Shown piece after piece: positions 20,219 to 39,054 of a stretch of DNA of 62,080 nt (the stretch's first letter is position 1; each line of letters opens with the position of its first letter). The translations under genes were made by a program, and so were the position numbers. Source of the DNA: Planctomycetia bacterium (lineage in GTDB: Bacteria; Planctomycetota; Planctomycetia; Pirellulales; UBA1268); contig JBJTDB010000168.1 in NCBI GenBank assembly GCA_046092145.1, positions 1 to 62,080 on the forward strand, in the 5' to 3' direction. The notes below the pieces were generated by a model. That model was not told the DNA's origin. It did not search any database and saw only the letters and a list, made by a program, of their open reading frames with translations.

Positions 20219-23200
20219 ATGACGCCCTCCCGACCCACCGATCCGGCGGCACTCGTCCTCGGATATCTCAACTTTTCGTCAGGATCGTTCGATCCCGCAG
20301 CCTGGCGGGCCATGAACGACCTCTTCGCCGCGATTGAAACGGCTCCCGGGCCCGACGGCGCGGCCGTCGCGGAGGGTGCCGACTCGTCCGCCGCCGTGGC
20401 CTCCGCCCTGCGGGACAGGCTCGCCGAACTGGAGGCATCGGAGCCGGCATTCCGACAATCGTCCCAGGCGCGGGCCGCGATCGACATGGTCTTGGATGTC
20501 GTCCCCAAAGCCTACCGCGACTACCACTCCGATCTGCTCGAGCACCAGCCACCCGGTGCGATCGAGCGGCCCTTTTTCCTGATGGCCGTCGCACAGGCGG
20601 TGCTGGCCGAAGGGGCCGGAGGCGATGATCTGGGCGACCCGGTTTCCGGTCGGCTCGTCGAGCGTGTTCTCTCGCGGCTCAACGACTACGTGGGCTGGCG
20701 CCCGGTGGCCGTCCTCGAAAACGGCCGCCTGTCGGAGCCCTATCCGCACGAACGGGTGCGGCCGATTCCGATCTTCATCAACGGCGCCGGCCCGGCCCAT
20801 GGCCGCTATCGGGATCTCGTGCAGGGGGCGATCGACATCCTCGCCGCCGCGCCTCCCGACCTCATGCGGCAAGCCGACTTCGATCTTGCGATGCTCGAAG
20901 AACTGGCGATCGATCCTCGTGCCTTCGATTTTCTCCATCCGGCCGCCAGCCGGCCCAACTATCTTTTTGGCCTCTGGGATCCGGGCCGGATCGACACGCA
21001 CGGCTGCTATCGTCGGATGGTCGTGCAGCAGGCGACGCTCGACGGCATCCTGTCGTGGCCATGTGCCGCCGGGCCCGAACAGCCGGAGGCCGGCCTGCTC
21101 GCGGAACTGCGCCGGGAATCCTCGGCCGTTCTCGCGGGCGTCATGCTCATGGCCTCCGGTCTCTCGGGACACGGGCCCGGTGCCCACCAGGCGGGCCTTC
21201 CCCTCGCCGAACTGCTGCCACGGATCGCGGGCTACCGCGATGCGTTCTACCGTTGGCTCATGGAACGGCTTCCGGAGCCGCACCGCGACCGGCTGAACGA
21301 GGAAACCAGCCGGCTTCGACAGCCCTTCGGCGGCGTGCGACGCCACATCAACACGCTGCTTGCCGGCCGTCGGGCAAGGCAGGTGGAGAGCGTCGCCCTC
21401 TCGGCGGTGATGTCTCGTCTTGGCCGTGCCGCCGAGGCGGAGCGGCTGGCGGGCATCGTGCCTGCCGCCTCGGCTCGGATGCTGGCGCGAATCAGCGGCA
21501 GCGTCGTGGCCGCCCGACAGGCGCTCCAGCCAGCCCCCTCGGCCGCCGGTGGAGCCGCAGCCGCGCTCGATCATCTCGACACCGCGGCCGATCTCTTGTT
21601 TCGCGCGGTCGGCTGCGGCGCCACCGTCGATCCGTGGAACATTCTCGGGCTGGCCGGTCAGTTTCCGCTTCATGAGCCGGGCGGGGAGAGCCTGACCGAT
21701 CCCCGGGTCGATGACCTCATCTCCACGACCGGCTCGATCCTCGATGGCTATGCCGCCGTGTGGCGGCAGGCGGCGCTCGGTGGCGCAAGCGCCGATGCCA
21801 CCCGCGCCTCGAATTCACTCGAGCGGCTTGCCACATGGTGGGATCGCTTCGCCACGACCACGGTCTCGGGTGTCGAGCACCTTTCGGGCCGAGAGGTTCG
21901 CGACTCGACGCGCGAGGTGATCGAGTCGCTCGACCGCCGCCACGACTCCGGCCCCGAGCCGCCGCCCCCGGGATTCTGGCGAAAGGAGGTCGCCTCGTTC
22001 TCGTCGCCGAGGAGCCATGCGCAGGCGGCCGATGCGTTGCTGCGGGAAGGCGATCTCGACGGCGCGATGGGGCTGCTCGTCCACTGGGCATCGCTCCTGG
22101 AGGGATCGACTCTCGACCACCTCGGCGGGGAATGGCTGGCGGCGGCGGCCCGCTGGATGGGCCGGGCGTTCACCGACCGATCGCCGGCCGGGAGGTCGCG
22201 AGTCAGGCGGTTTCTGGAACTGGTCGATGCGAATACCAGCGGGATCGCCGACATCATCGAGATGGTCGCGGCGGGGCGGGATCCCGGCGGCCCTCGTGGC
22301 GAGGGCATGGCATCGGCCGGGGAACCCGAAGACGAGCATCCCGACGCGGAGGAGAGCGTCGCCAGCGCCTATGAATCGATGGTGTGGCACGACTCCACCG
22401 ACGACGGCGTCGATGGCGGAATGCTCGAGTTCGACCTGCCGGGCGGCACGTCGGGCACCGGCCCGGCCGCCTTGGAGCAGGCGGCGGAGTTTCTCGCGGG
22501 ATGCGCCCGCCTGGTGCAGCATGCCGTCACGGCATCGTGCGCGGCCGACATCGCCGAGGGAGGCGGGCCGACTCGCGAGGAGATCGATGCGACGGTCGCC
22601 GCGCGGCATTCGATGCGACGGCAGCGACGCGCCATGATCCGGGCGGCCATGCTGATCACGTCGGAGGACATCGCCACCGATCCCGGGATGCCGGCGGCCG
22701 AACTCGAACGGCTGCGGTGGCAGCGGGATGCCGCGGCCGAACGGCTCAGCGAGGCCGCCGTGAAGGCGACCGAGACGTCGTGGATGCTGTCGGCGCGGCT
22801 CCGGATCGACGGGCCGCGGCGGCCTCGCGACGCGGATCGGAGTCCCGAGGGCCGTGGGCTGATCGGCCCTCTCTTCGCCGCGATCCTGCAGGGCGATGCA
22901 CCGCAGGCGCGGGACCTGCTCGACACACTCTGCAGCCGGCTCGTCGGAAAGGCGGTGCTCTACGTGCCGCTGTCACGCGGCGGCCGTCCCGATCGGATCG
23001 TCCGCGCCCGGTGCCGCGAACGGCTGCTGGCGAAGCTCGCCGCCTGCCTGCCGCGGATCGGCCTCGTGACGGAGACCACACGGATCGTCCTCCTGGCCAA
23101 GGGGCTCGAGGGAAAGCGGCCGGCCGGCGGGGCGAGTGTCAGCGAGTTCGATCGCGTGTTCGAGGCGGCAACCATGTCGCTCGTGGAGCGAATCGTCGAA

Positions 23201-24271
23201 AGCGCCCATGTGCCGGCCCCGGGAGAGCCGCCCGTCGATGACGCGACGGCGACCCAGAGGATCCTGGACGGCTTGGCCCTGCTGGTGCCGAGGCTCCTGG
23301 AGACCTGGATGACACACGCCCGTCAGCTCCGGCTCTCGGTGCTCGAGCGGGTGCGTGAGCAGAAGGCCTTCGACGGAGTGCGCGAGTTCGTCGAGCAGTA
23401 TGGCTCGGGCCTGTTCACGCAACACCTGCTCGCACCGCCGTCGCTGCGGGGAGTCCTCCGCGGTGGCGTCAAAGCCTTCCTGGAGCGGCTGCTCGAACGC
23501 GACCAACGCGATCACGGAGACGAGATCGGTCAGGAATCGCCCTCCCGCCGTCCGGCCAAGCTCCTCGACGATCTCGCGTCCGGCAGTCTGACGATGAAAC
23601 TGGCGCAGGCCCGGATACGGCTCGTGTTGGAGAGCGTTGCCGAGAATCATGCCGAATACCGCGACTGGAACTCGACGACGACCCAATCGGACCGCGGTGA
23701 ATGCATCCATGTGTTGCTCGACTTTCTCCGCATCAAGGCGGAGTACGACCGCATCACATGGACGCTGCGACCGGTCACGATGGCCCACCGGGTGCTGGCC
23801 AGACGGGGCGAGGCGGGGGCGGCCACCGCCTGGCGCGGTCGGCTGCGGGACGAGACGGCGGAAACCGCGGCGGGACTGACGAAACGTCTGGCCGACGTGG
23901 AACGCGAGACGGGAGTGCGGCTGGCGAGCATCGGCGATCGCATCCGTCGCGCCTTCACGGCGCCCCTGGAACAGGACGACCTCGAATCGTTCGTCGAGCC
24001 CGCCGTGTCCGAACTCTCGACAGGCTCGCCCCACGGAGCCGGTGCCCGGCTCGAAGAAAAGGCCCGCGGATTCCTCGGCGTCGCCAGCGGGTCGGGCGTG
24101 GAGGTGCCGGAATGGCTCGAGCGGCTCACCATCGCGGTCGACCGCACCCTGGAGCGGGCCGATGTCGAGACGGTCGCAGCAACCGCGTTCTCGCGCTCGG
24201 GCTCTCTTCCCGATGCGGTGGTGTGGGGGGTGATGCCATGGTCGGCCCTCCACGAATCGCTCTCGAAGTAG
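20219..24271 (+). CDS. large (~1350 aa) predominantly alpha-helical protein of unknown function
   Basis: Single uninterrupted ORF with consistent GC3 bias. Leu/Ala/Arg-rich, no TM segment, and I recognise no catalytic motif. The start could be ATG 20219 or GTG 20168. Confidence 0.7.
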   Translation: MTPSRPTDPAALVLGYLNFSSGSFDPAAWRAMNDLFAAIETAPGPDGAAVAEGADSSAAVASALRDRLAELEASEPAFRQSSQARAAIDMVLDVVPKAYRDYHSDLLEHQPPGAIERPFFLMAVAQAVLAEGAGGDDLGDPVSGRLVERVLSRLNDYVGWRPVAVLENGRLSEPYPHERVRPIPIFINGAGPAHGRYRDLVQGAIDILAAAPPDLMRQADFDLAMLEELAIDPRAFDFLHPAASRPNYLFGLWDPGRIDTHGCYRRMVVQQATLDGILSWPCAAGPEQPEAGLLAELRRESSAVLAGVMLMASGLSGHGPGAHQAGLPLAELLPRIAGYRDAFYRWLMERLPEPHRDRLNEETSRLRQPFGGVRRHINTLLAGRRARQVESVALSAVMSRLGRAAEAERLAGIVPAASARMLARISGSVVAARQALQPAPSAAGGAAAALDHLDTAADLLFRAVGCGATVDPWNILGLAGQFPLHEPGGESLTDPRVDDLISTTGSILDGYAAVWRQAALGGASADATRASNSLERLATWWDRFATTTVSGVEHLSGREVRDSTREVIESLDRRHDSGPEPPPPGFWRKEVASFSSPRSHAQAADALLREGDLDGAMGLLVHWASLLEGSTLDHLGGEWLAAAARWMGRAFTDRSPAGRSRVRRFLELVDANTSGIADIIEMVAAGRDPGGPRGEGMASAGEPEDEHPDAEESVASAYESMVWHDSTDDGVDGGMLEFDLPGGTSGTGPAALEQAAEFLAGCARLVQHAVTASCAADIAEGGGPTREEIDATVAARHSMRRQRRAMIRAAMLITSEDIATDPGMPAAELERLRWQRDAAAERLSEAAVKATETSWMLSARLRIDGPRRPRDADRSPEGRGLIGPLFAAILQGDAPQARDLLDTLCSRLVGKAVLYVPLSRGGRPDRIVRARCRERLLAKLAACLPRIGLVTETTRIVLLAKGLEGKRPAGGASVSEFDRVFEAATMSLVERIVESAHVPAPGEPPVDDATATQRILDGLALLVPRLLETWMTHARQLRLSVLERVREQKAFDGVREFVEQYGSGLFTQHLLAPPSLRGVLRGGVKAFLERLLERDQRDHGDEIGQESPSRRPAKLLDDLASGSLTMKLAQARIRLVLESVAENHAEYRDWNSTTTQSDRGECIHVLLDFLRIKAEYDRITWTLRPVTMAHRVLARRGEAGAATAWRGRLRDETAETAAGLTKRLADVERETGVRLASIGDRIRRAFTAPLEQDDLESFVEPAVSELSTGSPHGAGARLEEKARGFLGVASGSGVEVPEWLERLTIAVDRTLERADVETVAATAFSRSGSLPDAVVWGVMPWSALHESLSK

Positions 24272-24322: not shown

Positions 24323-25094
24323 GCGGGGCATGACGAGATCTCGACGCCACGCACCACAGCGCTCGCTCGCCGTCTGGCTGGCGGGAAGGATCGGGCTTGA
24401 AGCCTACGCCGGCATGGCGGAGAGGCTGGCGTGGGACGTTTCGGAGCCGGATGGAAGGCCACCGACGCTCGTGCTCTACGAGCCCGAGCCATCGATCACC
24501 ATCGGCCGGGCCGGCTCGCGCACCGATGTCGATCTGTCCGACGACGAACTCCGGTCGAGGCAGATCGCGATCCGGTTCATCGGCCGTGGCGGCGGCGCGG
24601 TGCCGCACGGACCGGGGCAGGTGGGAATCGCCCTCTTTGCCACGCTCGAGGACCTCGGCCTGGCCCGGCATGATGTCGGAGGCTATCTCGAACGGTTCGA
24701 GGCGGCGATCGAGGGCGCGGTCCGCGGTCTGCGATGTGGCGCCGCCCGCGACTCGCGTGCGGCGGGCATCTTTGGTCGCACGGGCCTGCTGGCCGCCGTC
24801 GGGATCGCCGTGCGACGCGGCGTGGCCTGGCATGGCGGCTTTCTCAACGTGCAGCCACTCGCCTTCCCCATGCACCGCGTGCGGACCGCTCCCATGGCCG
24901 CCGCGGCGGGCATGCGTACCATGTCGTCGGTCGAGACCGACGTGCAACGCCGGGTCCGGGTGCAGGATGCCCGCACGATGATCATCGAGCAGGTGGCCGA
25001 CGCCTTCGGTTTCGCCGAATCGCATGTCCACCCGGGCATGCCTGTGTCCGTCCGTGAAGTCCCTCTCCGGGAGCCTGCGAGCCGTGCCGGATAA
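24321..25094 (+). CDS. lipB: LipB-like octanoyltransferase homologue (catalytic Cys/Lys apparently substituted)
   Basis: GRGGGAVPHGPGQ (compare RGGxxTYHGPGQ), AVGIAVRRGVAWHGGFLNV (compare [17 protein letters not shown]). Sits immediately upstream of and overlapping lipA. See the findings for the missing dyad. Confidence 0.75.
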   Translation: MRGMTRSRRHAPQRSLAVWLAGRIGLEAYAGMAERLAWDVSEPDGRPPTLVLYEPEPSITIGRAGSRTDVDLSDDELRSRQIAIRFIGRGGGAVPHGPGQVGIALFATLEDLGLARHDVGGYLERFEAAIEGAVRGLRCGAARDSRAAGIFGRTGLLAAVGIAVRRGVAWHGGFLNVQPLAFPMHRVRTAPMAAAAGMRTMSSVETDVQRRVRVQDARTMIIEQVADAFGFAESHVHPGMPVSVREVPLREPASRAG

Positions 25095-26001
25095 TCTCCT
25101 TTCCCTCCCGATCGTCGAAGCCTCCGCGCCGGTGACGGCTCCGCCGGCCCGCCGGCTGCCGCCATGGCTGCGTCGCAACCTCGAGCCGGGCGGGGGCCAC
25201 GGCGAGACGGCGCACCTGATCGCCGAACTCGGCCTGGAGACGGTCTGCTCGTCGGCCAAATGCCCCAATCGCCTCGAATGCTGGTCGCAGCGGACGGCGA
25301 CGTTCATGATCCTCGGCAACGTCTGCACGCGGCCGTGCGGCTTCTGCTCGGTGCCACGGGGCAAGACCGAGGAGCTCGAACTCGACGAGCCGCAGCGCGT
25401 GGCCGAGGCGGCACGGCGGCTGGGGCTCGCCCATGTCGTGATCACGAGCGTCACCCGCGACGACCTGCCCGATGGCGGGGCCGACCACTTTCGGCAGACG
25501 GTCGAGGCCGTCCGGGCCGCCACCGGCGCGGTGGTCGAGGTGCTCGTGCCCGATTTTTTGGGCAAGGAAGGGGCGCTCGAGCGGCTCCTGCAGGCGAAAC
25601 CCGACGTCTTCAACCACAACACCGAGACCGTGCCGCGGCTCTATCGTACGGTCCGAGGTCGCAGGAGCGTCTACGCCTGGACGCTCCAGCTGCTCGCCGA
25701 CGCCAAGCACATGCTCCCATCCGTGAAGACCAAGAGCGGCCTCATGCTCGGGCTCGGAGAGACGCGCGACGAATTGCTCGATGTCTTCGCCGACCTGCTC
25801 GACCATGGGGTCGATTTCCTCACGCTCGGACAATACCTGCAGCCCACGCCCGACTCGCTTCCGGTCGAGCGGTATGTCCCGCCCGAGGAATTCGACGAGA
25901 TCGGCGACCTGGCCCGGCGCATGGGATTCGCGAAGGTGGCCTCCGGCCCGTTCGTGCGATCGAGCTACCATGCCCGCGAGATGAACGAGGGGCCGGACTG
26001 A
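25024..26001 (+). CDS. lipA: lipoyl synthase
   Basis: Auxiliary cluster CSSAKCPNRLEC (Cx4Cx5C), radical-SAM CTRPCGFC (Cx3Cx2C), VITSVTRDDL.DGGA, SGLMLGLGET, RSSYHA. The start is uncertain: ATG 25024 overlaps lipB by 71 nt and GTG 25084 overlaps by 11 nt. Confidence 0.95.
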   Translation: MSTRACLCPSVKSLSGSLRAVPDNLLSLPIVEASAPVTAPPARRLPPWLRRNLEPGGGHGETAHLIAELGLETVCSSAKCPNRLECWSQRTATFMILGNVCTRPCGFCSVPRGKTEELELDEPQRVAEAARRLGLAHVVITSVTRDDLPDGGADHFRQTVEAVRAATGAVVEVLVPDFLGKEGALERLLQAKPDVFNHNTETVPRLYRTVRGRRSVYAWTLQLLADAKHMLPSVKTKSGLMLGLGETRDELLDVFADLLDHGVDFLTLGQYLQPTPDSLPVERYVPPEEFDEIGDLARRMGFAKVASGPFVRSSYHAREMNEGPD

Positions 26002-26019: not shown

Positions 26020-27087
26020 CTACTCGCCCGCATCCTCGAGGCCGTGCTCGAGGAGTTTCTTGCGGAGCGTGTTGCGGTTGATGCCGAGGCGGGCGGCAGC
26101 CTTGAGCTGGACGCCGTTGCAGGCGGCGAGCATCTGTGCGATCAGCTCCCGCTCCACACGACTGACGATCCGGTCGAAGAGGGTGTCGTCGTCGGGCCCG
26201 GCCGTCGCCATGCCCTGCTCGACGAGATCACGCGCGAGACTGTCGAGGTCGCCTCCGCGGCCGGGCATCGACACGGTCGGCCGCCCGCCCCGCATGGCGG
26301 GAGGCAGCAGGTCGAGCGTGATCTCGTCGCCCGGCGCCAACACCACGCACCGCTCGACGACGTTTTGCAGCTCGCGCACGTTGCCCGGCCAGTGGTAGGC
26401 GACCAACGCATCCGTCGCCTCCTTCTGGATGTGCACCACGTACCGCTCGCACTCCCGATTGTAGTGCTCGAGAAAATGGGTCAGCAGCAGCGGAATGTCT
26501 TCCCGACGCGACCGCAACGGAGGAATGGAGATCGGCACCACGTTGAGCCGGTAGTAGAGATCCTCTCGAAACGTCTCCTTGGCCACCTCGTCGAGCAGCT
26601 CACGGTTGCTCGCGGCGATCACGCGGGTATCGACGCTGATCGTCTCGGTATCGCCCACCCGTTCGAACTCCCGTTCCTGCAGGACTCGCAGGAGCTTCAC
26701 CTGCAGCTTGGGCGTCGTGGAGTTGATCTCGTCGAGAAAGATCGTGCCGGTATGGGCCGCCTCGAACCGGCCGGCACGGTTGGCCACGGCGCCGGTGAAC
26801 GCTCCGCGGACGTGCCCGAAGAGTTCGCTCTCCAAGAGGCTCTCCGAGAGGGCGCCGCAGTTGACGCGGACGAACGGCCCGGTGTTCCGCGGCGAGAGCC
26901 GATGGATGGCCTTCGCGATCAGTTCCTTGCCCGTGCCGGTCTCGCCCATGAGGAGCACCGAGGCATTGGAGGCGGCCACGCGCCGGGTCATGGCATAGAC
27001 GGCCTGCATCGCCGGGCTCGAACCGATCAGGCCCTCGATGGGGGGCGCGGCGGCGTCATCGCCGGATGAGGCGGGAGTACGGAGCAT
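26020..27087 (-). CDS. sigma-54-dependent transcriptional activator consisting only of an AAA+ domain and a Fis-type HTH (no receiver or sensor domain)
   Basis: [36 protein letters not shown] (Walker A), GAFTGA loop (VRGAFTGA), GTIFLDEI (Walker B), [28 protein letters not shown]-terminal [19 protein letters not shown] 27087 is about 25 aa before LIGSS. The upstream part of the 468-aa track ORF is Arg/Ser/Pro junk overlapping the previous gene. Confidence 0.9.
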
Positions 27088-29458
27088 CGACTCGGGCGGT
27101 TCGGGGGCGGATGCGTGGCGACTCGACGATTTCGAGGAGGGCGCCGGCCTGGTCTCGGCTGTCCGCATCGATCGCCCGATTGTACATGGTGGAGAGCTGG
27201 AGCACGTCGTCACGCTCGAGCAAGAGGCCATACCGCCGCACGCTGGCCGCGAACCCGGCCCGTGCCGAGCCTCGCCAGGCCTCGGGGAGATCGCGCTGCC
27301 CCGCCTCGCGAAAGAGCGCCCGCTGGGCGGCCGGATCGCCCGCCGTCGCGAGGACCGCCACGGCGGCGTTGTGGAGGTCGGGATGAAGGATCGCCGCGCG
27401 GGCCACCTGGACCGCCGCTGAGACATCCCATCCGCGCTCGCCGAGCGAAGCCAGCGTGATCAGCGCCGTGCGTGCCCGGGCCACTCGGGCAGCCGCTTGT
27501 GCGGCACGCCGCGCCGGGTCGCCCGTGCGCGGCCCCGCGGCGATCGCGAGGGCATCGAGAAATCGTGGAGGCCTGGGTGCCGCGCCGTCTGCCACGGGAT
27601 CGGTGGCCGGCAGAAAAAAACTCTCCATCCGATCGACGATCGCCACGCATTCGACATCGGCGAACGACGTGATCAGTCGCGACAGGAACAGGCCTCGAGG
27701 ATTGTCGTCGAGGGGATCGACGACGACGAGCACGGGTGGCGTCTCGAGATCGCTCCCGAGTCGGAGCAGTTCCACGGTCTCCAGGGCCGACGGGCTCCCG
27801 AGTCGGGCCGCCAGGATCACAAGCACCGTGTCGGCTGAATCACGGGCGGCGAGGATCGCATCGCGACCCTTTCGCACACGGATCGTCTCGTACCCATGCC
27901 GCGACAGCCCGGTGGCCAGTTCCTCGACGATCGTGAGATCGGGGTGGGCCACGATGGCCCGATCGGTGCCCGTCGATGTGGCGGCATGGACGAGGTTTCG
28001 CACGACACGGCTGGACCCGCGGTAGGGTGGATCACCGGCGCGGGCGGCCAGCGTGACGGCGGCCTCGAAGGCGAGGGTGGCATCGGGAGCGGAGAGCCCG
28101 CGGACCAGGGCGTCGCGGGCAGCCGGCGTCAACGGAGCCGCCGGCGTCGTGCCGCGTTCCGGTCGGTTCGCCTGCGACAACCGCATGGCCCTCGCGGCCG
28201 CGGCCGCGGCCTGCTTCATCCCATGGGCGGCGGCGTCGTCGAGCACCTCGGCGACGATGGCCGGATCGAAGCCTTCCGGTCCGGAAAGCGCCTCGAGCAT
28301 GGCTTCATCGGGAGGCATTCCATCGACCGCCGCGGGATTCAACGCGGCCAGCGCCGACGCCATCTCGAGCCTGGACACCAGGATGAGCCTGATGTGTGCG
28401 GGATCGGTGGGTCCCATCGCCGCGAGATCACGGGCCAGGTGAATGGCCCTCTCGGCACGCGCCAGTCGCGTCGGCATCGAGATGCGCTGCGCCGCGGCAG
28501 CCTGTGGATTCCATATGACTCGGTCGATCGTCGTTGCATCGAGGCTGTCGGCCGGCGGGAGGCCGGCGGGAGAGAGGAGCTGGTCGAGCCGACGGGCGAT
28601 GAGAACCCGGGCCATGTCGGGCGTCGGCGCGATCCCGTGAGCCGCCAGCGCACGGCCGGCGGCGGCCCGAACCGCAGGCGGCGCATCGGCTGCGAGCGCC
28701 GGGCCGAGCAGATAGTCGGTCTCCTCGCCGCTCCATGGGGCGAGCGCCGCGATCACGCCCGGCCACCGGTCGATGTCGGCCGACCCAAGCCATGCCAGGA
28801 GCGCATCGCGGCCATCCACGCCCATGTCGCGCACGAGACCACGGGCGATGCCGCGGGCGACCTCGCCCGCATCGTCCTCGGTCTGCAGCAGGGCGACCAA
28901 CGCGGGCAGGGCATCGATGCCCATGCGGGCAAGCTGGCCTGCGGCATCGAGCCGCTCAGGGCGGGAATCGCTGCGGAGCCCGTCGATGGCCGCAGACATC
29001 CGCTTCGGGTCGCGGCGCCGCAGGCCCGCGGCGTCGGTGAGCGAGCCGAGCACTCTGGGGGCGTCGGGCTCGTAGCGGGCGATCTCCCGCTCCAGTCGGC
29101 GGATGCCGGCCGCATCGACGGCATCGCCGAGGTCGGCGAGCAGATCGGCCCGGTTCTCTCCGGCCTCCTCCACGGCAGCGACGAAACCCCGGTAGAAGTC
29201 GACGGCATCGGCCACGGCATCGACATCGATGGCGGCGATCGCGGCGTCGAGCCATGCCCGGGCCGTTTTCGGGGGCGGCTGCCGACGCGACTCGACGACG
29301 GCGCGGGCCATCGGATCGAGCGCAACGCGAGGTGGCTGTGGCGACTGCGGCGGATTCTGTCGCTCCGCCGCCCACGCCGGGGCATGGCAGGGCACGGCCG
29401 TGGCCGTCACAAGCGCGAAGACCAGGAGCGTGCCCCGAGATCGAGAAACCGTCGCCAT
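27056..29458 (-). CDS. ~800-aa signal-peptide protein with HEAT-like repeats and a receiver-shaped (pseudo-receiver) segment, function unknown
   Basis: N-terminus [32 protein letters not shown] (AxA site). Ala/Leu/Asp-rich helical repeats ([15 protein letters not shown]...). Segment [56 protein letters not shown]...PPVLVVVDP resembles a REC fold without the phospho-acceptor Asp. Its end overlaps the EBP start by 32 nt. Confidence 0.65.
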
Positions 29459-29593
29459 GCACCGACAACGTCGGCACGCCATGCCGTCACGATCGATCCG
29501 AAGCCGTCTCTCCGCGCAACTACCCGCGATCCACAGGGAGCGGCGGTCGCGCGGCCATCCCAACCGTCAGACCTTCACCATCCCTCGCGGCCG

Positions 29594-30691
29594 TCACTCA
29601 CGGCCAGCCCGACCCCCGCCCATGCGGCCGGCCTGCGGCCTCGTGACCGCTTCGCCCACGGCGGCGGCAATGTCGGGGAGGGGAACGATTCGATCGACGA
29701 CGCCAAGCTCGACCGCCGCCCGGGGCATGCCATAGACGACGCAGGTCGATTCATGCTCGGCGATCGTCGTGCCGCCAGCCGCACGAATCGCCTGCATCCC
29801 AACCGCTCCGTCGCTGCCCATGCCGGTGAGCAGCACGCCCACGGCATGTCGCCCGGCCGCTTCTGCCGCCGACCGGAAGAGCACGTCAACGGCCGGGCGA
29901 CAGTGGTGGATGGGAGGTGTTCGCAAAAGCCGGGTGACATGCACTCCGGCACGGAACTCGACTGCCAGGTGAAAATCACCCGGCGCGATCACGCAACTGC
30001 CCGGCCGGAGTGGCTCGTTATCGCCCGCCTCACGGACATCGATGCCGCTGATTGCGTCGAGCCGATCGGCGACCGCCTTGGAGAAGAAGGCCGAAATGTG
30101 CTGCACGACGGCGATCGGCGGCAGTCCCGATGGAAGCCGCGGAATGATCTGGCGGAGCGCCTCCACGCCGCCGGTCGATGCGCCGATGACGATGAGCTGG
30201 CGGGCGTCGGGCGACACAGCGGGTCGCTCCACCAGCGGGCCGGGCGTCGAGGGGCGGGCCGCGCCACGCCGAAGCCGCGGGGCCGCGGCCGCCGCCGCCT
30301 TGACGTGGAAGGCAAGCTTGTCGGCAAGCGCCCCAATCGACATCGTGCCATCGGGCTTCGCGAGCACATCCACGGCACCGGCCTCGACCGCGTCCAGCGC
30401 GGCCTGCGATCCCTGCTGGGCCAGCGAGCTCACCACGACCACCGGCAACGGGTGGTGCTCCATGAGGATCCGGAGGAAAGTCAGGCCGTCCATCCTCGGC
30501 ATCTCGAGATCGAGCGTGAGGACGTCGGGATCCAATTGCTCGATCTTTTCCCGGGCCACGTAGGGATCGCAGGCCGTCGCCACCACCTCCAGCGCCGGAT
30601 CACGGGCGAGTGCCTCGCTGATCGCACGCCGGACGAGCGCCGAATCATCGACGACGAGGACGCGGATTTTCCGGTCCTGAGTACCGTTCAT
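29594..30691 (-). CDS. cheB: chemotaxis response regulator protein-glutamate methylesterase CheB
   Basis: REC domain IRVLVVDDSALVRR...DPDVLTLDLEMPRMDGLTFL. Esterase domain LIVIGASTGG...HMP..FT..FA.RL, GMGSDG, ES.VVYGMP. Confidence 0.95.
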   Translation of the reverse strand: MNGTQDRKIRVLVVDDSALVRRAISEALARDPALEVVATACDPYVAREKIEQLDPDVLTLDLEMPRMDGLTFLRILMEHHPLPVVVVSSLAQQGSQAALDAVEAGAVDVLAKPDGTMSIGALADKLAFHVKAAAAAAPRLRRGAARPSTPGPLVERPAVSPDARQLIVIGASTGGVEALRQIIPRLPSGLPPIAVVQHISAFFSKAVADRLDAISGIDVREAGDNEPLRPGSCVIAPGDFHLAVEFRAGVHVTRLLRTPPIHHCRPAVDVLFRSAAEAAGRHAVGVLLTGMGSDGAVGMQAIRAAGGTTIAEHESTCVVYGMPRAAVELGVVDRIVPLPDIAAAVGEAVTRPQAGRMGGGRAGRE

Positions 30692-30713
30692 GGTCGTGTG
30701 TCGCTCCGCGTGT

Positions 30714-31556
30714 TCACAGTGGCCTCTCGTAGAGCGAGGGTCCGGCCTGCCGGAACCGGTGCCGCAGCCCGAGCAGGCTCTCGGCATGGCCGATGAAGAG
30801 GAATCCACCCGGAGCGAGCTGATCGAAGAGCCGCTCGACGAGCGCCTGCCGCGATTCGGCGTCGAAATAGATCATCACGTTGCGGCAGAAGATCACGTCC
30901 TGTCCGTGCTGCAGCGGGTAGGACTCCTGAAAGAGATTGATGGCCGCGACCTGGACATGCCGTCGGAGTTCCGGCTTCACCCGATAGAAGCCCTCTCGCT
31001 CACCGAACCCTCGGAGGAAATGACGACCGAGGAACCGTGGATCGGGAAGTTCGACCGCGCGGGCTTCGTAGATCCCCATCCTGCATCGCTGGAGCATTCG
31101 CCGGGAAATGTCGGAGGCCAGCACCGTCCAGCCTCGAGGGAGAGGGGTCGCCTGCTGCTCGGCCAGCACGATGGCGATCGAATAGGCCTCCTCGCCCGAT
31201 GCCGCGGCCGCGCTCCAGATCCGCAGGCCACGGCCGGCCGCGGCTGCGCGGGGGGCCATGGCCGGGAGCACATGGCGTGCGAGAAGATCGAAGTGTGCCG
31301 GTTCCCTGAAGAAACGGGTGTGATTGGTGGAGATGAGGTCGATCAATGCCTCGGCTTCCTCGTCTCCATTCCGTGCCCCGAGGAGGCGGCAGTAGTCGTC
31401 GTAGGTCGCACACCCGAGTTCGCGAAGGCGATTGGCCAGTCGGCTCGCGACGAAGGCCTGCCGATCTGGTCCGAGCCGGATGCGGCTCCGCCGATAGACC
31501 ACGTCGGCGAGAAACGCATAGGCCTGCGGCGAGAGTGCGGCGTCGGGAGAGATCAT
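30714..31556 (-). CDS. cheR: chemotaxis protein methyltransferase CheR
   Basis: LISTNHTRFFREPAHFD, LRIWSAAAASGEEAYSIA (SAM-binding), DVIFCRNVMIYFD, PGGFLFIGHAE. The start overlaps the mcp stop (ATGA). Confidence 0.95.
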   Translation of the reverse strand: MISPDAALSPQAYAFLADVVYRRSRIRLGPDRQAFVASRLANRLRELGCATYDDYCRLLGARNGDEEAEALIDLISTNHTRFFREPAHFDLLARHVLPAMAPRAAAAGRGLRIWSAAAASGEEAYSIAIVLAEQQATPLPRGWTVLASDISRRMLQRCRMGIYEARAVELPDPRFLGRHFLRGFGEREGFYRVKPELRRHVQVAAINLFQESYPLQHGQDVIFCRNVMIYFDAESRQALVERLFDQLAPGGFLFIGHAESLLGLRHRFRQAGPSLYERPL

Positions 31557-33169
31557 GCCGGCCGGTGTTCCCCCTCGAAACTGGTGAAGTGGCGGTCCTC
31601 AGCGTCGGCCGCCACCGTGTCGCCATCACCCGGCATCGGAATTCTGGGGGCAAGCGTCCGGAGCCGGGGCAGCGGGGCCACCGCAGGACGTGGCACTGGG
31701 AGCCTGGCGGGCGTGATCGGTTTCCGCGATCGGATGACGAGCCCTCGCAGGCTCTCGACCTGCTCCTGCATCAGTCCGGCCTGGTCGGAGAGGTCGGCCG
31801 CGGCCCGGGCACCCTCGTCGGCGCGGGCGGCATTGTCCTGGGCGATCTGGTCGAGCTGGGACATCGCCGTCGTGATCTGACGGATTCCCTGGAACTGCTC
31901 CCGGGCGGCGGTGGCGATCTCGGCGACGAGCCCGTCGGCCGCCCTGATGCGTTCGGCGATCTCGTCGAGCGAATGTCCGACACGACCGCAGCTGGTGGCC
32001 CCCTCACGGCTGCTCGTGATGGCCGCCTCGATCCGTTCCGCGGTTTCGCGGGCCGCCGCGGCGCTTCGCTGCGCCAGGAGCCGCACCTCGTCGGCGACGA
32101 CGGCGAACCCGGCCCCCGCTTCGCCCGCACGGGCCGCTTCGACCGCGGCATTGAGAGCGAGGATGTTGGTCTGGAAGGCGATCTCGTCGATCTGCTTGAC
32201 GATCTTCGCGACGTCGCCGCTGGCGGTGGCGATCGCCTGCATCGCGCCATCCATCTCCACCATCGTCCTCGCACCGGCCTCCGCGGCCACGCGGGCCTGC
32301 GTGGCACACTCCTTGGCCTTGGTGGCATTCTCGGCCGTGGCACGGGTCATCGCCGACATCTGCTCGAGGGCCGCGCCGGTTTCCGCGACCGAGGCCCCCT
32401 GCTCGCTGCAGCCGGTGGCGACCGTCTGGCTGACGGAGGCGAGCTGGCTTGACGACGACGACGTCCGCGCGGCGCCGGTCTCGAGCGACGAGGAGATCTT
32501 GATCAAGGTCCGTGAGAGCGACCGTATGATGCCGGTGGCCAACAGCAGTCCGACGAGCACCGTGCCCGCGAGCGTCGCGACGTTGAAGCGGAAGCCCATC
32601 CGGAGCTTCGACTCGGCCCGACCAAGTTCCTGCTCGGAAAGGGCGATGTTGTGGTCGATCACGGCCCTGAATCGCTCGAGACATTCCCGGGCGACAGGCT
32701 CGACGTCGCCCAGCACCGCCCGGCGGGCATCGTCGGCCCGCCCGTCGGCGGCCAGTGCGACCGCCTGCTGCAGCTTCGCGAGGAAGGCTTTCCGGGCGGC
32801 GCGCGCGGCGATGAAGAGCCGCTCGTCCTCGGCATCGCTGAAGAGATCGACATAGCTTCCACACAGCCTGTCGCCACGGTCGATCGCTTTCCGTAGGTCC
32901 ACCGCGGCGGCCGCCATCCGCGCCGGGTCGTCGGTATCCAGGATGGCCGTGCGGGCCGACTGCAGCCCCAGAAGATTGGCCTCGATGATGCGGCTGAGTG
33001 TGGCCACCGACGGCACGATGGTGTCGGAGAGCAACGTGACGTGATGCTTGATCTGCGACAGCCTCCACAACGAGGCCAGTCCGATCGAGAACGCAGCCAG
33101 CACCAGCACCGCAAACCCGACGCCGACGCGATGGGGGATGGTCGAGGTCTTGAACCAGGTCGTGACCAT
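31553..33169 (-). CDS. methyl-accepting chemotaxis protein (four-helix-bundle-type sensor, no obvious HAMP)
   Basis: Two TM segments flank a helical periplasmic region. Highly conserved signalling hairpin [41 protein letters not shown]. Confidence 0.95.
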   Translation of the reverse strand: MVTTWFKTSTIPHRVGVGFAVLVLAAFSIGLASLWRLSQIKHHVTLLSDTIVPSVATLSRIIEANLLGLQSARTAILDTDDPARMAAAAVDLRKAIDRGDRLCGSYVDLFSDAEDERLFIAARAARKAFLAKLQQAVALAADGRADDARRAVLGDVEPVARECLERFRAVIDHNIALSEQELGRAESKLRMGFRFNVATLAGTVLVGLLLATGIIRSLSRTLIKISSSLETGAARTSSSSSQLASVSQTVATGCSEQGASVAETGAALEQMSAMTRATAENATKAKECATQARVAAEAGARTMVEMDGAMQAIATASGDVAKIVKQIDEIAFQTNILALNAAVEAARAGEAGAGFAVVADEVRLLAQRSAAAARETAERIEAAITSSREGATSCGRVGHSLDEIAERIRAADGLVAEIATAAREQFQGIRQITTAMSQLDQIAQDNAARADEGARAAADLSDQAGLMQEQVESLRGLVIRSRKPITPARLPVPRPAVAPLPRLRTLAPRIPMPGDGDTVAADAEDRHFTSFEGEHRPA

Positions 33170-33179
33170 GGGGGGCCTT

Positions 33180-33707
33180 TCAGGACAGGGAGGATTCGGC
33201 GACCGCGTTGCCCGACGTCATCGAATGAATGTCTGCGGCCGCGATGGCATCGATGTCGATCAGCGTCGTCACGCCACGGGTGGTTCTGGCCATCCCGGCG
33301 ATGAAGCGGGCATCGATCGCACCGCCGAAATCGGGGGTCGGCACGAGGTCGTCGGAGGCGTAGGAGACCACCTCCTCGACGCTGTCGACGACAACCGCGT
33401 AGGGCCGCACGCCGCCGCTCGCCGCCGGAACCTCGGTGACGATGAAGCAGGTGCGTTCGTGGTCGGGCGGGGCCGGCAGCCCAAACCGAGCACGCAGATC
33501 GACCAGTGGAATCACCCGCCCGCGCAGGTTGATCACGCCCCTGACATGCGGTGGCATCGTCGCCACCGGCGTGACCGGGCAGAGCCTGATGATCTCCCGC
33601 ACCACCAGCACGCTCATGCTGTAGGTTTCACCCGCGAGGGAGAAGGTGAGGTATTTGCCCGGCCGGGCCATGGCCACGTCGGGGGGCAGTGTCATGGGAA
33701 GCGTCAT
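33180..33707 (-). CDS. cheW: chemotaxis coupling protein CheW
   Basis: YLTFSLAGETYSMSVLVVREIIRL...VRGVINLRGRVIPLVDLR. Start is 13 nt after the cheA stop. Confidence 0.9.
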   Translation of the reverse strand: MTLPMTLPPDVAMARPGKYLTFSLAGETYSMSVLVVREIIRLCPVTPVATMPPHVRGVINLRGRVIPLVDLRARFGLPAPPDHERTCFIVTEVPAASGGVRPYAVVVDSVEEVVSYASDDLVPTPDFGGAIDARFIAGMARTTRGVTTLIDIDAIAAADIHSMTSGNAVAESSLS

Positions 33708-33720
33708 CGTGTGCGGGCGG

Positions 33721-35832
33721 TCATGCCGCCGTCTCCAAAGGCGATGTCGTGAGCCGCACCAGGGCCGTTGTGTCGAGGATCAAGCCGACGCGGCCGTCAC
33801 CGAGGATCGCAGCGCCGGCGAAGCTGCGGGCTCCTCGGAAGGTCTCGCCGAGGGCCTTGATCACGACCTCCTGCCTGCCGACGAGGGAATCGACCAGAAG
33901 GCAGCGGCGGTCGTGGCCCGATTCGACGACGACCACGATGCCCCTGGAGGGATCGTCGATCGCGGTGTCGATGCCGAGGTGGCGACCGAGCCGCAAGAGC
34001 GGCAGCAACTGTCCTCGAACATCGACCAGTTCGCCGCGTCCGTGCACCGTCGTCACGCCGCCCGCGGTCGGCCGAAACGATTCCCGGACCGATACCGCGG
34101 GAATGACGAACTGCTGCTCGCCGACGGCCACGAGCAGCCCCTCGATGATCGCCAGCGTCAGCGGCATGAAGATCGTGAAGGTGGTGCCCTTCCCCGGATG
34201 CGATTCGATCTCGACGGTGCCGCGAAGCCGTTCGATGTTGCGGCGCACGACGTCCATTCCGACGCCGCGACCCGACAGGTCCGAGACCCGCTCCGCGGTG
34301 GAGAACCCCGGCGCGAAGATCAGTTCCAAGGCCGCCCGATCGTCGATCACGGAATCGGCTGCGATGAGCCCGCGTTCGAACCCCTTGGCCCGCAGCCTCG
34401 CCGGATCGAGTCCCCGACCGTCGTCGGCGATCTGGATCACCACGAAGCCGCCCTGATGACGGGCCCGAAGCGTGATCGTGCCGGCCGCCTGCTTTCCGGC
34501 GGTTGACCGATCGGCCGGAGACTCGATGCCATGGTCGGCCGCGTTGCGAACCATGTGCATGAGCGGGTCGCCGATCTCTTCGATCACGGTGCGATCGAGT
34601 TCGGTCTCCTCCCCCTCGACGACGAGGCGGATCTCCTTGCCGAGTTGTGCGGACAGATCGCGGACAAGCCGGCCCATCTTCTGGAACGTTCCCTGGATCG
34701 GAATCATCCGCATGGCCATGGCCGTCCGCTGGAGGTCGGCCGTGATGCCCCGCAGCCGACCGAGCGACCGCGCAAGCGGCTCATCGACTCCGTGAGTCTC
34801 GGCACCGATGGCGACCATCGACTGCGCGATGACCAGTTCGCCGACCAGATCGACGAGCCCGTCGAGTTTCTGGGTATCGACGCGGATGGAGCCCGCAGTC
34901 GATGCGGCCCGAACCGGCTGCGGCGCGGCGGGAGCCTCGGCCGCCACCGGCTCGACGGGAACGGGCGCCGACTGATCGGCCGCCGCAGCCGCGAGGGGCG
35001 TCTCGGCGATCGCAGGAGGTGTGGGAGTCGGCGGCGGAGGACTCGGAGCCGACTCGCCCGCGAGGACGGCCCGCACACGGCCCACCACCGCGGGAATGGG
35101 AAGGTCGATCGATCGGCCCGCGTTCTGGCCGTCGAGCTGCCGAGTCAGTTCCGACACATACCCCGCAAAAACGTCCGCTCCGGCGAGCACCACGTCGATG
35201 GCGTTGCGATCAAGACGCCGCGTCCCCCGGCGGGCGGCATCGAGCAACGACTCCAGTTCGTGAGCCAGCCGCTGCAGCACGACGAGCTTCATGACGGCGG
35301 CGTTGCCCTTGAACGTGTGGAAGGCCCGAAAGACGGTGGCGAGCGTGTCGGGATCGTCGGGCGTGGTTTCCAGACGCAGCACGCCCTGCTCGATCTCCCG
35401 AAGGAGATCCTCCGATTCGGAGCAGAAGAGCCGCATCAGTTCAGCATCGGCCCCCTCGGGCAGCACCGTCACCGGCTGCGATGCGTCGAGAGCCTCGGGG
35501 GTCGCGGGTGCGGTCACGGGGCCGAGTGCCGTCGGCCAGATCGGCAGCGGGAGGCCGCGCTCCCAGGAGGTGACCGCCTCCTCCATCCACGGATGCCAGA
35601 GATTGAATCGCTCCGCCACGTCGGGCGCGATCGACCCGGCATCGGCGAGCCAGCCCGAGGCGGCGGCGACCGCCGAGCGGATTTCCGATGGCGCCGAGCC
35701 GCTCACGCCGCGGGCCAAGGAGGCGAGCATCTCGCGCAGCGGTGCTGGGCCCGCCGTTGAGACAAAGGCGAGTTCGAGGCCGATCTTCTGGAGCAGGCCG
35801 CGGGAAGCGTCGATCGTGGCGTCGGGAGGCAT
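33721..35832 (-). CDS. cheA: chemotaxis histidine kinase CheA (Hpt, dimerisation, HATPase and CheW-like domains; no C-terminal receiver)
   Basis: Hpt FRAFHTFKGNAAVM, dimerisation IRVDTQKLDGLVDLVGELVI, N box DPLMHMVRNAADHGIE, G boxes DDGRGLD and GRGVGMDVV, C-terminal CheW-like LLVAVGEQQFVIP...VDVRGQLLPLLRL. ATG 35832 preferred over TTG 35883. Confidence 0.95.
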   Translation of the reverse strand: MPPDATIDASRGLLQKIGLELAFVSTAGPAPLREMLASLARGVSGSAPSEIRSAVAAASGWLADAGSIAPDVAERFNLWHPWMEEAVTSWERGLPLPIWPTALGPVTAPATPEALDASQPVTVLPEGADAELMRLFCSESEDLLREIEQGVLRLETTPDDPDTLATVFRAFHTFKGNAAVMKLVVLQRLAHELESLLDAARRGTRRLDRNAIDVVLAGADVFAGYVSELTRQLDGQNAGRSIDLPIPAVVGRVRAVLAGESAPSPPPPTPTPPAIAETPLAAAAADQSAPVPVEPVAAEAPAAPQPVRAASTAGSIRVDTQKLDGLVDLVGELVIAQSMVAIGAETHGVDEPLARSLGRLRGITADLQRTAMAMRMIPIQGTFQKMGRLVRDLSAQLGKEIRLVVEGEETELDRTVIEEIGDPLMHMVRNAADHGIESPADRSTAGKQAAGTITLRARHQGGFVVIQIADDGRGLDPARLRAKGFERGLIAADSVIDDRAALELIFAPGFSTAERVSDLSGRGVGMDVVRRNIERLRGTVEIESHPGKGTTFTIFMPLTLAIIEGLLVAVGEQQFVIPAVSVRESFRPTAGGVTTVHGRGELVDVRGQLLPLLRLGRHLGIDTAIDDPSRGIVVVVESGHDRRCLLVDSLVGRQEVVIKALGETFRGARSFAGAAILGDGRVGLILDTTALVRLTTSPLETAA

Positions 35833-36043
35833 CGAACCCCGGCTCGCAGGTCGGTCGGGCCCTCCGCGGACCCTCCTGGTCAATCGTAGCTCGTAATTCC
35901 GCCGACTGGTGGATCTGCGGAAACGGGCGGGGAAAGTCCTGTCGTGCCGGTTGTGCCGGCGTCGGCGTCACGGCCCGAAAACGCGACCTAGACTTCCACG
36001 ACGGGCCCGAATCCGGAGGCCCGATGCCATTCGGGATGCAGCC

Positions 36044-37507
36044 ATGAACGCCATGCAGCGGCTGAAGCTGACGACGATCGCCCCCGTGGCGGGCCTGCTC
36101 GCGCTTTCCCTCGCCGCCTTCGTCAGTCAGCGGTCGCTCAGCCAGGCCCAGACCAACCGGTTCGAATCCTATCGCCTCGCCAACGAGTTGCGGCAGAGTT
36201 CCGACGAACTCACGCGACTGGCCCGCACGTACTGCGTCACGGACGATCCCGAGTTCGAGCGGGAGTTCTGGCATGTGCTCGACGTCCGCAACGGCACGCA
36301 GCCACGCCCCGACGGCCGCACCGTGCCGCTGCGAACGCTCATGGAGCAACAGGGCTTCACAGAGGCCGAGTTCGCGATGCTCGAGCAGGCGGAAGACAAC
36401 TCCAACGCCCTCGTGGCAACCGAGACCATCGCGATGAACGCGATGAAGGGGCTTTTCGCCGACGGACAGGGTGGCTTCACGAAGCGAGGCGAGCCCGACC
36501 GTGAGCGTGCCCGACGGATCATGCATGATTCGCAATACCATGCCGACAAGGCGAGGATCATGGAGCCGATCGGACGGTTCGAGCAGATGATCGACCGTCG
36601 GACCGACGAGGCGGCCCGAACCGCCCGCTGGCGCAGCGACGCGATGATGCTGGTCATGATCGTCGTCGCGGCCGTGGCCGCCGTCATGACGTGGCTGAGC
36701 ATCGGCCGCCATGCACGCACGCTCCGCGGCGCCATCGATCAGCTCGCCTCGACCGCGGAGAACGTCGGCAGTGGGGCGACCGAGACGGCCGCGGCAAGCC
36801 AGTCGCTGGCTCAGGGCGTGACGGAGCAGGTGGCGGCCGTCGAGGACATCTCGCAATCGGCCCGCGAGACCGCCAGCATGGCCTCCGACAACGCCCGACG
36901 CACGCAGTCGGCCAGCGACCTCGTGGCCCGCGAGGAGCGGCAGTTCGCCGAAGCCTCAGGCCGATTGGGAGAAATGGTCACGGCGATGGAGGCGATCAGG
37001 ACGACCGGCGCCCGAATCTCGAAGATCAACAAGGTGATCGACGAGATCGCCTTCCAGACCAACATCCTCGCCCTCAATGCGGCGGTCGAAGCGGCCCGCG
37101 CCGGCGAGGCCGGGCTCGGATTCGCCGTGGTGGCCGAAGAGGTTCGGATGCTCGCCCGTCGATCGGCCGAGGCGGCCCGCGAGACGGCCTCCCTCATCGA
37201 GGAGTCGATCGCCCGTTCCGATGCCGGCAGCGAGAAGGTGGCCGACGTGGCATCCTCCATCACATCGCTCGCGGAGCAGGCGTCGGCGGTGAGGGTGCTC
37301 GTCGACGAGGTGAACGCAGGGAGCCGCGAGCAGCAGCTGGCCGTCTCCCGCATCGGCGACGCGCTCAAGCAGATCGAGGACGTGAGCCAGCAGGCGGCAG
37401 CAGGGGCCGAACAGGGTTCCGCCGCGGCCGAGGAACTCAACGCTCAGGCCGCATCGCTGCTCGACGTCGTCGCGATCCTCGGCCACATGGTCGGGCGCGA
37501 TCGTTAG
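36044..37507 (+). CDS. methyl-accepting chemotaxis protein (second copy, divergent from cheA)
   Basis: N-terminal [21 protein letters not shown], helical sensor region, second TM, then [46 protein letters not shown] 36044. Confidence 0.9.
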
Positions 37508-37574: not shown

Positions 37575-38972
37575 CTAGCGACTGGAAAGGCGTGCCTTCC
37601 ACGATGCCAGTTGTTCGGTGACGCGGGCAGGGGCGGTCGATCCAAAGCTCTGCATCCGCGCGACGGCCTGCGATGCGCCGAGCGCCGCGCGATACGAGGA
37701 CTTCCAGCCGGGGCATTCATGCCGGCACTCGTCTTCGGAAAGCTCGTCGAGACGCACGCCGCGGTTCATCGCCAGCCGCACGAGCCGTCCGACCGTCTCA
37801 TGCGCGGTTCGCTGGGGCAGCCCGTCGGCGATCAGGGCCTCCATCAGGCTCGTGGCATCGAGATGGCCGCGATCGACCGAGGCGGCGATGCGATCCCTGT
37901 CGAACGACGTACCTTCCACCAGCGGCGCGGCCACACCCAGCATCGCCTCGAGCGTGTCGATCGAATCGAAGATCCGCTCCTTGTCCTCCTGGAGGTCACG
38001 GTTGTAGGCCGTCGGCAGGCCCTTGAGGAGCACGAGCAACGCCTGCACGTTGCCGATCGCGCGGGCCGACTTGCCGCGGACCAGTTCGAGGACATCCGGG
38101 TTGATCTTCTGCGGCATGATCGAACTGCCGGTGCAGAATCCCTCGGGCAGTTTGAGGAAGCCGAACTCGTGCGTGCTCCAGAGGATCCACTCCTCGGCCC
38201 ACTGCGAAAGGTGCACGGCGCACAGCGACAGCACGAACGCCAGTTCACAGGCGAAGTCGCGGTCGCTCGCCCCGTCGAGACTGTTGGCCGCGATGCCGTC
38301 GAAGCCGAGCGACCGCTGCACATGCTCGCGGTCGATTGGCAGGCTCGTGCCCGCTAGCGCCCCGGAGCCGAGCGGCAGGATGTTGGTCCGCCTCCGGCAG
38401 TCGGCGAGCCGATCCCGATCGCGCTGGAGTTTCTCGCACCAGGAGAGGATCTGATGGCTCGCGAGCACCGGCTGCGCCCGCCGCAGGTGCGTGTAGGCGG
38501 GGATGACGAGCCCCTGCTCTCGATCGGCCAGTCCGACGAAGGCCCGCTGCAATCCGGCGATCGCTGCGTCGATCCGGTCGATGGCCCGTCGGCAGAAGAG
38601 CCGAAGGTCGGTCGCCACCTGATCGTTGCGGCTTCGGGCCGTGTGGATTTTTCTGCCGACGTCGCCCAGTTTCGCCGTGAGGGCCGACTCGATGTGGAGG
38701 TGGATGTCTTCATTGGCGATGGTGAATTCGAATCGGCCGGCCGCGATCTCGCGGCGGATCTCCTCGAGCACCGTGGCCACCGCCTCGGCCTCAGCCGACG
38801 TCATGAGCCCGGAGGCGGCGAGCATCCGGGCGTGGGCGATCGAGCCGTCGATGTCGTCGTCGGCAAGCCGCCGGTCGAACGACACGCTTTCGGAAAACCG
38901 CTCGACCCGCTTGTCGGTCGGCTCGCGGAACACGCCGCCCCAGGCTTTTGCATGCGTGGAGGAATGGTCCAT
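37575..38972 (-). CDS. argH: argininosuccinate lyase
   Basis: WGGVF...RL...DI.GSIAHA.ML, TARSRNDQV, YTHLRRAQP, fumarate-lyase signature GSSIMPQKINPD. ATG 38972 (GTG 38975 is an alternative). Confidence 0.95.
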   Translation of the reverse strand: MDHSSTHAKAWGGVFREPTDKRVERFSESVSFDRRLADDDIDGSIAHARMLAASGLMTSAEAEAVATVLEEIRREIAAGRFEFTIANEDIHLHIESALTAKLGDVGRKIHTARSRNDQVATDLRLFCRRAIDRIDAAIAGLQRAFVGLADREQGLVIPAYTHLRRAQPVLASHQILSWCEKLQRDRDRLADCRRRTNILPLGSGALAGTSLPIDREHVQRSLGFDGIAANSLDGASDRDFACELAFVLSLCAVHLSQWAEEWILWSTHEFGFLKLPEGFCTGSSIMPQKINPDVLELVRGKSARAIGNVQALLVLLKGLPTAYNRDLQEDKERIFDSIDTLEAMLGVAAPLVEGTSFDRDRIAASVDRGHLDATSLMEALIADGLPQRTAHETVGRLVRLAMNRGVRLDELSEDECRHECPGWKSSYRAALGASQAVARMQSFGSTAPARVTEQLASWKARLSSR

Positions 38973-39054
38973 CACGATCCCTTTCTGCGGCGGATGTCTC
39001 CCTACTTGTACTGTCGCAGGGTGAAAAATCCATCCGTGCCCGTGACCGTCGTGG

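Follow-up and report, generated by a model that had tools for sequence, protein, structure and literature searches.

We describe here a chemosensory (che) gene cluster and the two genes that follow it on contig JBJTDB010000168.1 of a Planctomycetia bacterium (GenBank assembly GCA_046092145.1), the whole 62,080-nt (62-kb) stretch being referred to below as the window. Seven minus-strand genes are tightly packed: cheA (33721-35832); cheW (33180-33707), 13 nt from cheA; an mcp gene encoding a 4HB_MCP sensor module (31553-33169), 10 nt from cheW; the methyltransferase gene cheR (30714-31556), overlapping mcp by 4 nt; cheB, encoding a receiver and a methylesterase (29594-30691), 22 nt from cheR; a gene for an 800-aa protein designated X800 (27056-29458), 135 nt from cheB; and a gene for a 355-aa sigma-54 enhancer-binding protein (EBP; 26020-27087), overlapping X800 by 32 nt. 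A second mcp gene (36044-37507, plus strand; Pfam MCPsignal) is divergent from cheA. The flanking genes are argH, for argininosuccinate lyase (37575-38975, minus strand), and lipA, for a radical SAM lipoyl synthase (25024-26001, plus strand), which is convergent with the EBP gene. Loci of relatives carry L-numbers, and argH was identified by Pfam Lyase_1 and ASL_C2 on the L001 and L003 orthologues. A preliminary description of this locus had proposed a coupling between the Che kinase and the sigma-54 activator that no visible domain explains, possibly through an unrecognised adaptor. The gene order, gaps, overlaps and divergent mcp that it gave were reproduced at every boundary by open reading frame (ORF) listing, translation and junction sequence.

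The core chemosensory set in the window is complete according to Pfam: methyl-accepting chemotaxis protein (MCP), CheA and CheW, plus the adaptation enzymes CheR (CheR_N and CheR domains) and CheB (Response_reg and CheB_methylest). CheA consists of Hpt, H-kinase_dim and HATPase_c domains with a CheW domain at its C-terminal end and no fused receiver; its matches to the NCBIfam CheA models score under the cut-offs. A receiver hidden Markov model (HMM) run on all six-frame ORFs detected no receiver in the window other than that of CheB, and neither a cognate CheY nor a receiver-fusion output for CheA was found within these 62 kb. The preliminary description had likewise reported no stand-alone CheY, a CheA lacking a receiver and an intact receiver in CheB only, and the Pfam and HMM scans confirm all three. 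All six che genes are intact both in the window and in its nearest relative, L005. Between these two loci the ratio of nonsynonymous to synonymous substitution rates (dN/dS) is 0.12-0.18 for the che genes (cheB 0.13), 0.11 for argH and 0.024 for the EBP gene. The che genes remain under purifying selection, so the chemosensory system is presumably still in use.

The EBP contains Sigma54_activat (PF00158, E = 4e-71), AAA_lid_14 and HTH_8 (E = 6e-12) domains, and its translation shows the Walker A motif GETGTGKE and GAFTGA. Just ~20 residues precede the AAA+ core, leaving no N-terminal regulatory domain; the stretch upstream of the EBP ATG codes for the X800 C-terminus in a different frame. Independent gene calls in other assemblies give orthologues of 340-353 aa, and REC, GAF or PAS domains occur in 0 of the 120 closest homologues (327-417 aa, 118 of them 327-365 aa). 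The earlier picture of an activator with Walker A, GAFTGA and a Fis-type helix-turn-helix (HTH), free of REC, GAF and PAS modules, therefore holds for the window protein and for its homologues. Its architecture is of the sensor-less PspF/HrpS type, it cannot be controlled by phosphotransfer in cis, and the activator of this gene family never had a sensory domain. The possibility of a fused or frameshifted X800-EBP gene was ruled out: the length of the overlap or gap differs among genomes, and both ORFs are intact everywhere. The protein scores under the cut-off of every NCBIfam equivalog. The PspF model TIGR02974 gives 287.6 bits (cut-off 443.55) over aligned positions 1-334 of 336, and the NifA and NtrC central domains outscore it. 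In PspF, the YLW patch that docks PspA lies in the W56 loop, H-Y-L-S-S-R-W-Q-G-P-F (PMC3791423); in the EBP the corresponding position, aligned by eye on the GPF anchor, reads R-L-N. A literature search on planctomycete EBPs gave nothing specific.

X800 belongs to a large family of uncultured Planctomycetota: a word-indexed search returned >285 homologues, each 780-850 aa long and each from this source, and an exhaustive profile search returned 436 clusters (50% identity) at E<=1e-30. Neither Pfam nor NCBIfam has a match for the window protein. An AlphaFold2 model built with 49 homologues (mean predicted local distance difference test [pLDDT] 84.9; predicted template modeling [TM] score 0.77) shows a disordered N-terminus (residues 1-37, pLDDT <50), an alpha-solenoid (49-295) followed by a beta-hairpin and more helices, a compact five-stranded beta-alpha domain (500-609) and a C-terminal helical domain (632-783). 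Foldseek matched the full model in the Protein Data Bank to generic HEAT/ARM solenoids only, such as beta-catenin and karyopherin, with TM scores below 0.35. Of the 49 close homologues, 30 match Pfam Arm and 24 match HEAT_2; all 25 distant homologues searched match HEAT_2 as well. The model thus describes X800 as a HEAT/ARM-like alpha-solenoid with an embedded, degenerate receiver-like domain.

The receiver-like domain (residues 500-609; 27632-27961, minus strand) has alternating strands and helices in exactly the receiver topology, at a pLDDT of ~82-95 in the full-length model. Modelled separately, the domain reached a pLDDT of 58, and the Foldseek matches obtained from that model were treated as weak support only: all of the top 50 were receivers, at E>=7e-3 and TM scores of 0.32-0.47. 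Pfam Response_reg matched neither the window protein nor its 49 close homologues and gave sub-threshold matches in 3 of 25 distant homologues (best E = 7e-4). An hhalign comparison with nine receivers was not significant (probability 8%); it placed Ala550 at the CheY phospho-acceptor D57. His505 and Pro506 occupy the positions of CheY D12 and D13, Asp581 follows beta4 and Arg610 follows beta5. The beta3 Asp is kept in some distant homologues. This domain is the best-conserved part of X800, and one family member carries the JGI name 'CheY-like'. The likeness to receivers lies in modelled fold and topology with no significant sequence match, so that the label pseudo-receiver stands at the level of the predicted fold; with these residues, the domain cannot be phosphorylated at the canonical position.

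The N-terminus of X800 is shaped like a Sec signal peptide (residues 1-30; 29369-29458, minus strand): MATVSRSRG, 13 hydrophobic residues and AWA|AE, with cleavage expected after AWA. The same pattern of a positive n-region, 12-20 hydrophobic residues and AxA recurs in nearly all 49 close homologues and in distant ones, despite sequence drift. By these sequence heuristics X800 is probably exported and extracytoplasmic. Tat export was rejected as a general property of the family; RR precedes the hydrophobic core in some members and is absent from many, including the window protein (SRSRG). The preliminary description had credited X800 with a signal peptide, HEAT-like repeats and a receiver-shaped stretch lacking the acceptor Asp. 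AlphaFold2, Foldseek and the HEAT and Arm matches of the homologues bear this out, the predicted fold being receiver-like and the acceptor position Ala550. Pfam confirmed the domains that had been named for the Che proteins and the EBP; X800 gave no Response_reg or HEAT match of its own.

The window proteins were located by tblastn in a close set of 80 species-level loci that encode X800 relatives. A short EBP directly follows X800 in 72/72 species-level loci with enough downstream sequence, at 81-99% identity to the window EBP. X800 is 40-65% identical to that of the window, except in L005, where it is 90% identical. In 59 of 70 scored loci argH is directly upstream of X800 with no che genes between them, and lipA is usually convergent downstream. 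A distant set of 80 metagenome loci, retrieved with an alignment of 7 closer sequences as query, represents a subfamily of ~750 aa that is ~25% identical to X800 and shares with it the signal peptide, HEAT repeats, receiver-like domain and a C-terminal QYxRYN motif. In this set a short EBP lies <=400 nt after X800 in 71 of 75 loci with room for one, argH is upstream in nearly all loci, and che genes are found in 0/80. The X800/EBP part of the adjacency on which the earlier proposal was built is therefore conserved in both sets. We conclude that argH, X800 and EBP form an old, vertically inherited trio of Planctomycetota, and the very strong conservation of the X800/EBP adjacency makes a functional link between these two genes plausible.

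Three distant loci differ from this arrangement: in L129 the EBP match falls in two overlapping pieces (8157-9187), suggesting a frameshift or assembly error; in L130 the EBP is 3.5 kb downstream (11634-12641); and in L100 it is absent within 6 kb. The nearest che-less relative, L014, has a 40-nt overlap of argH with X800 (9896-9935) and an 11-nt overlap of X800 with EBP (12054-12064), which suggests that a housekeeping gene of arginine biosynthesis is translationally coupled to the two regulator genes. The sigma-54 promoter pattern TGGCAC-N5-TTGCW matches the window 16 times (17.8 expected). No conserved sigma-54 site was found upstream of X800 across 80 loci, and a search over all 1.2 Mb of loci gave chance-level matches and no conserved site. 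An RpoN box is absent from the 62-kb window.

A che cluster separates argH from X800 only in the window, L003/L004, L005-L010, L012, L013 and L015. On a neighbor-joining tree of the EBP these loci fall in one clade, which also includes the che-less L014 and L011. By count, che genes adjoin in 9 of the 80 species-level loci, every one of them in that clade. The divergent mcp is present in every che-bearing relative and is thus a member of the inserted block. Between argH and X800, L011 retains a 140-nt mcp remnant (507-647, minus strand) of 47 codons, which matches the C-terminal part of the divergent mcp at 68% identity and has the appearance of a scar left by a deletion. A footprint of the insertion remains in the window: the 135-nt cheB-X800 spacer holds a relic of the 3' end of argH (29470-29530, minus strand), ~60 nt long and immediately before the X800 start codon. 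In local alignment the relic matches the window's own argH 3' end at 33/39 nt (z = 5.3) and the genuine 3' end of argH in L014 at 46/59 nt (z = 9.4), at collinear positions, and the signal also appears in L005, L006 and L015. The restriction to a single clade, the argH relic and the ancestral overlap in L014 are the grounds for holding that the che block was inserted into a pre-existing argH/X800 junction. The direct adjacency of cheB and X800, the other half of the arrangement noted earlier, is confined to the window and L005. In L016 there is no che gene at argH/X800, and cheR-cheB (1-1355) lies ~6 kb upstream of argH, past a DinG-like helicase gene, which indicates that che clusters sit at different places of this neighborhood in different lineages.

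In every che-bearing relative except L005, a convergent gene encoding Response_reg and Guanylate_cyc domains lies between cheB and X800. It is listed in L003, L006-L010, L012, L013, L015 and L168-L170, with the receiver residues DD, D, S and K intact. The gene is absent from the window locus and from L005, and no remnant of it was found at the window locus; it has been lost from this locus in the lineage of the two. Gene order suggests that this receiver-cyclase is likely the Che output in the relatives. Two findings count against the preliminary description on its own terms: a bona fide receiver partner gene closes the che cluster in the sister genomes, and the adjacency of cheB with X800 is not kept among relatives. 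Homologues of the receiver-cyclase (67-76% identity) are widespread in related planctomycetes, and a copy elsewhere in the source genome is plausible. A literature search on Che clusters with a cyclase output gave nothing specific.

Taken together, these results lead us to consider it probable that the locus consists of two unrelated modules side by side, a che block having been inserted into an older trio, and that no new kinase-to-activator wiring is needed. The block comprises mcp, cheA, cheW, mcp, cheR and cheB, ancestrally followed by the convergent gene for a receiver and class III nucleotidyl cyclase, and the EBP tree and the argH relic indicate that it entered the argH/X800 junction once, in the ancestor of one small clade. 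CheA would signal to the receiver-cyclase, so that the pathway would set the level of a cyclic nucleotide and not transcription through the EBP. The X800-EBP pair would ancestrally have been co-transcribed with argH, and EBP activity would not be set by phosphotransfer. In the window lineage, the response regulator for the che genes would be encoded elsewhere in the genome. The convergent cyclase gene of the sister genomes precludes read-through from cheB into X800, which means that X800-EBP must own a promoter; this promoter is plausibly located inside the retained argH relic.

Several observations weigh against this account of insertion. The CheA response regulator of this organism was not found in the 62 kb of its genome that are visible. 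The receiver-cyclase is tied to Che by gene neighborhood only, and its 67-76% identical homologues outside the che-bearing clade adjoin corA and the atp operon, with no che genes. The argH relic is weak or not significant in the che-bearing loci L003, L008, L009 and L013 by the same test. The tree is a simple neighbor-joining tree of one highly conserved protein, and the export of X800 is a prediction. Finally, the che operon and X800 are on the same strand, 135 nt apart, and a promoter and terminator scan of 25.9-37.7 kb was uninformative, with no terminator detected in the spacer, so read-through co-transcription in the window is possible.

The rival explanation that survives best, which we nonetheless regard as unlikely, leaves Che aside and has X800 regulate the EBP in trans. 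The receiver domain would be supplied in trans, as PspA is for PspF and HrpV for HrpS, and would come either from cytoplasmic X800 awaiting export, which would report the state of secretion or of the envelope, or from a form that is not exported. The two genes, their reading frames often overlapping or almost touching, stay adjacent down to ~25% X800 identity, usually with argH upstream; conservation within X800 is highest in the receiver-like domain; and the EBP itself lacks a sensory domain, characterised sensor-less EBPs being controlled in trans (PMC3791423, PMC3105312). This explanation is opposed by the family-wide conservation of the Sec-type signal peptide, by the lack of similarity of X800 to PspA or HrpV, and by the R-L-N that replaces the PspA-docking YLW patch. 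Adjacency of genes is, moreover, by itself no proof of regulation. A more elaborate form of the same idea deserves slightly less credence. It would make X800 a new kind of trans regulator, a degenerate receiver on an export-competent HEAT solenoid, whose unexported or retained form docks on the AAA+ ring of the EBP; the output would report the state of secretion or of the envelope, and together with argH the pair would constitute a regulatory unit that is ancient and common to the whole phylum Planctomycetota.

We consider it very improbable that the Che pathway signals to the EBP through X800 as an unrecognised adaptor or pseudo-receiver, with the seven genes forming one unit that has a transcriptional output. 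The co-directional, tightly packed genes with no detected terminator in the spacer, the receiver-like fold of X800 and the lack of a CheY in the window are as such a unit would have them, and the che genes are still selected after the loss of the cyclase, so that some output exists. Against this, the X800-EBP pair is kept with no che genes in ~60 related species and 80 distant loci, the convergent receiver-cyclase splits cheB from X800 in the sister genomes, and cheB and X800 are direct neighbors at two loci only. X800 also has a conserved export signal and lacks both the acceptor Asp and the acidic pair, which makes it a poor candidate for a substrate of CheA or for an adaptor in the cytoplasm. 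The coupling put forward in the preliminary description, and the role of X800 as its partner, are accordingly not supported. That the che cluster here is instead a decaying orphan, left with no output when the receiver-cyclase was lost, is hardly credible: the cyclase gene is gone with no remnant and 62 kb hold no further receiver, but none of the six che genes is disrupted in the window or in L005, and their dN/dS resembles that of argH.

Otherwise the window consists of ordinary chromosomal genes, for MetRS, Lnt, UvrA, lipB/lipA, argH, a DinG-like helicase, glycogen synthase and FloA/NfeD; an Rfam scan gave a tRNA as its sole match. A 644-aa protein with a cNMP_binding domain (E = 1.5e-8) is encoded at 42390-44324 (minus strand), ~3.4 kb past argH, and is of note because the che cluster of the sister genomes terminates in the receiver and class III cyclase gene. 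In three further loci, outside the che-bearing clade, a receiver-cyclase homologue occurs at a conserved position, in convergent orientation to corA and a short distance upstream of the F-type ATP synthase operon (L165, 10001-11083; L166, 10001-11056; L167, 2446-3561); in L166 a cNMP-binding mechanosensitive channel is encoded nearby. Adjoining lipB is a 1367-aa ORF with no Pfam match (20168-24271, plus strand), which is syntenic with a 1390-aa Pfam-less protein in L001 (15584-19756). Two tandem T2SSE-family (PilB/PilT-like) secretion ATPase genes lie at 3079-6182 (plus strand), ~20 kb from the che cluster, and a FloA flotillin gene is paired with an NfeD gene at 49318-53426 (minus strand).

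The EBP resembles PspF of Escherichia coli and HrpR/HrpS of Pseudomonas syringae in having an AAA+ sigma-54 domain and a Fis-type HTH with ~20 residues before the AAA+ core. By its TIGR02974 score it is not orthologous to PspF, and the PspA-docking patch is not conserved. It also differs in its neighbor, a predicted-exported solenoid and pseudo-receiver and not a cytoplasmic inhibitor of the PspA or HrpV kind, and in the setting of its gene, a housekeeping argH/lipA neighborhood. CrdA, the output of the Che3 pathway of Myxococcus xanthus, a chemosensory system that acts on transcription, bears a receiver (PMC3147164). The likeness of the present locus to Che3-CrdA is superficial, since the EBP here, unlike CrdA, lacks a receiver; the che linkage here is, in addition, an accident of clade-specific insertion that is not conserved in relatives.

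In Wsp, a Che pathway of the alternative cellular function (ACF) type with a non-motility output, a receptor-CheA complex drives second-messenger synthesis through a fusion of a receiver and an enzyme. The che cluster of the sister genomes likewise ends in a receiver fused to a nucleotidyl cyclase; there, in place of a GGDEF domain, the fusion carries a class III adenylate/guanylate cyclase (Pfam Guanylate_cyc), and its gene is absent from the window. The domain of X800 is like known pseudo-receiver domains in its (beta-alpha)5 topology, its receiver structural neighbors and the Ala at the acceptor position. It is set apart by its place midway in a HEAT/ARM solenoid of 800 aa that follows a signal peptide, and by a sequence match that is not significant.

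For this locus, no unexplained coupling between a Che kinase and an activator is needed, and the juxtaposition of the two is a datable insertion event. What remains is a deeply conserved and uncharacterised trio, in which an EBP more than 80% identical across the close family is preceded by a predicted-exported HEAT/pseudo-receiver protein and usually by argH. Planctomycetes are thought to retain little gene order, and a trio this stable therefore probably marks an important, unstudied regulatory unit. The Che-like pathway of the sister genomes seems to act on a receiver joined to a class III cyclase, which suggests chemosensory control of cyclic AMP or cyclic GMP.

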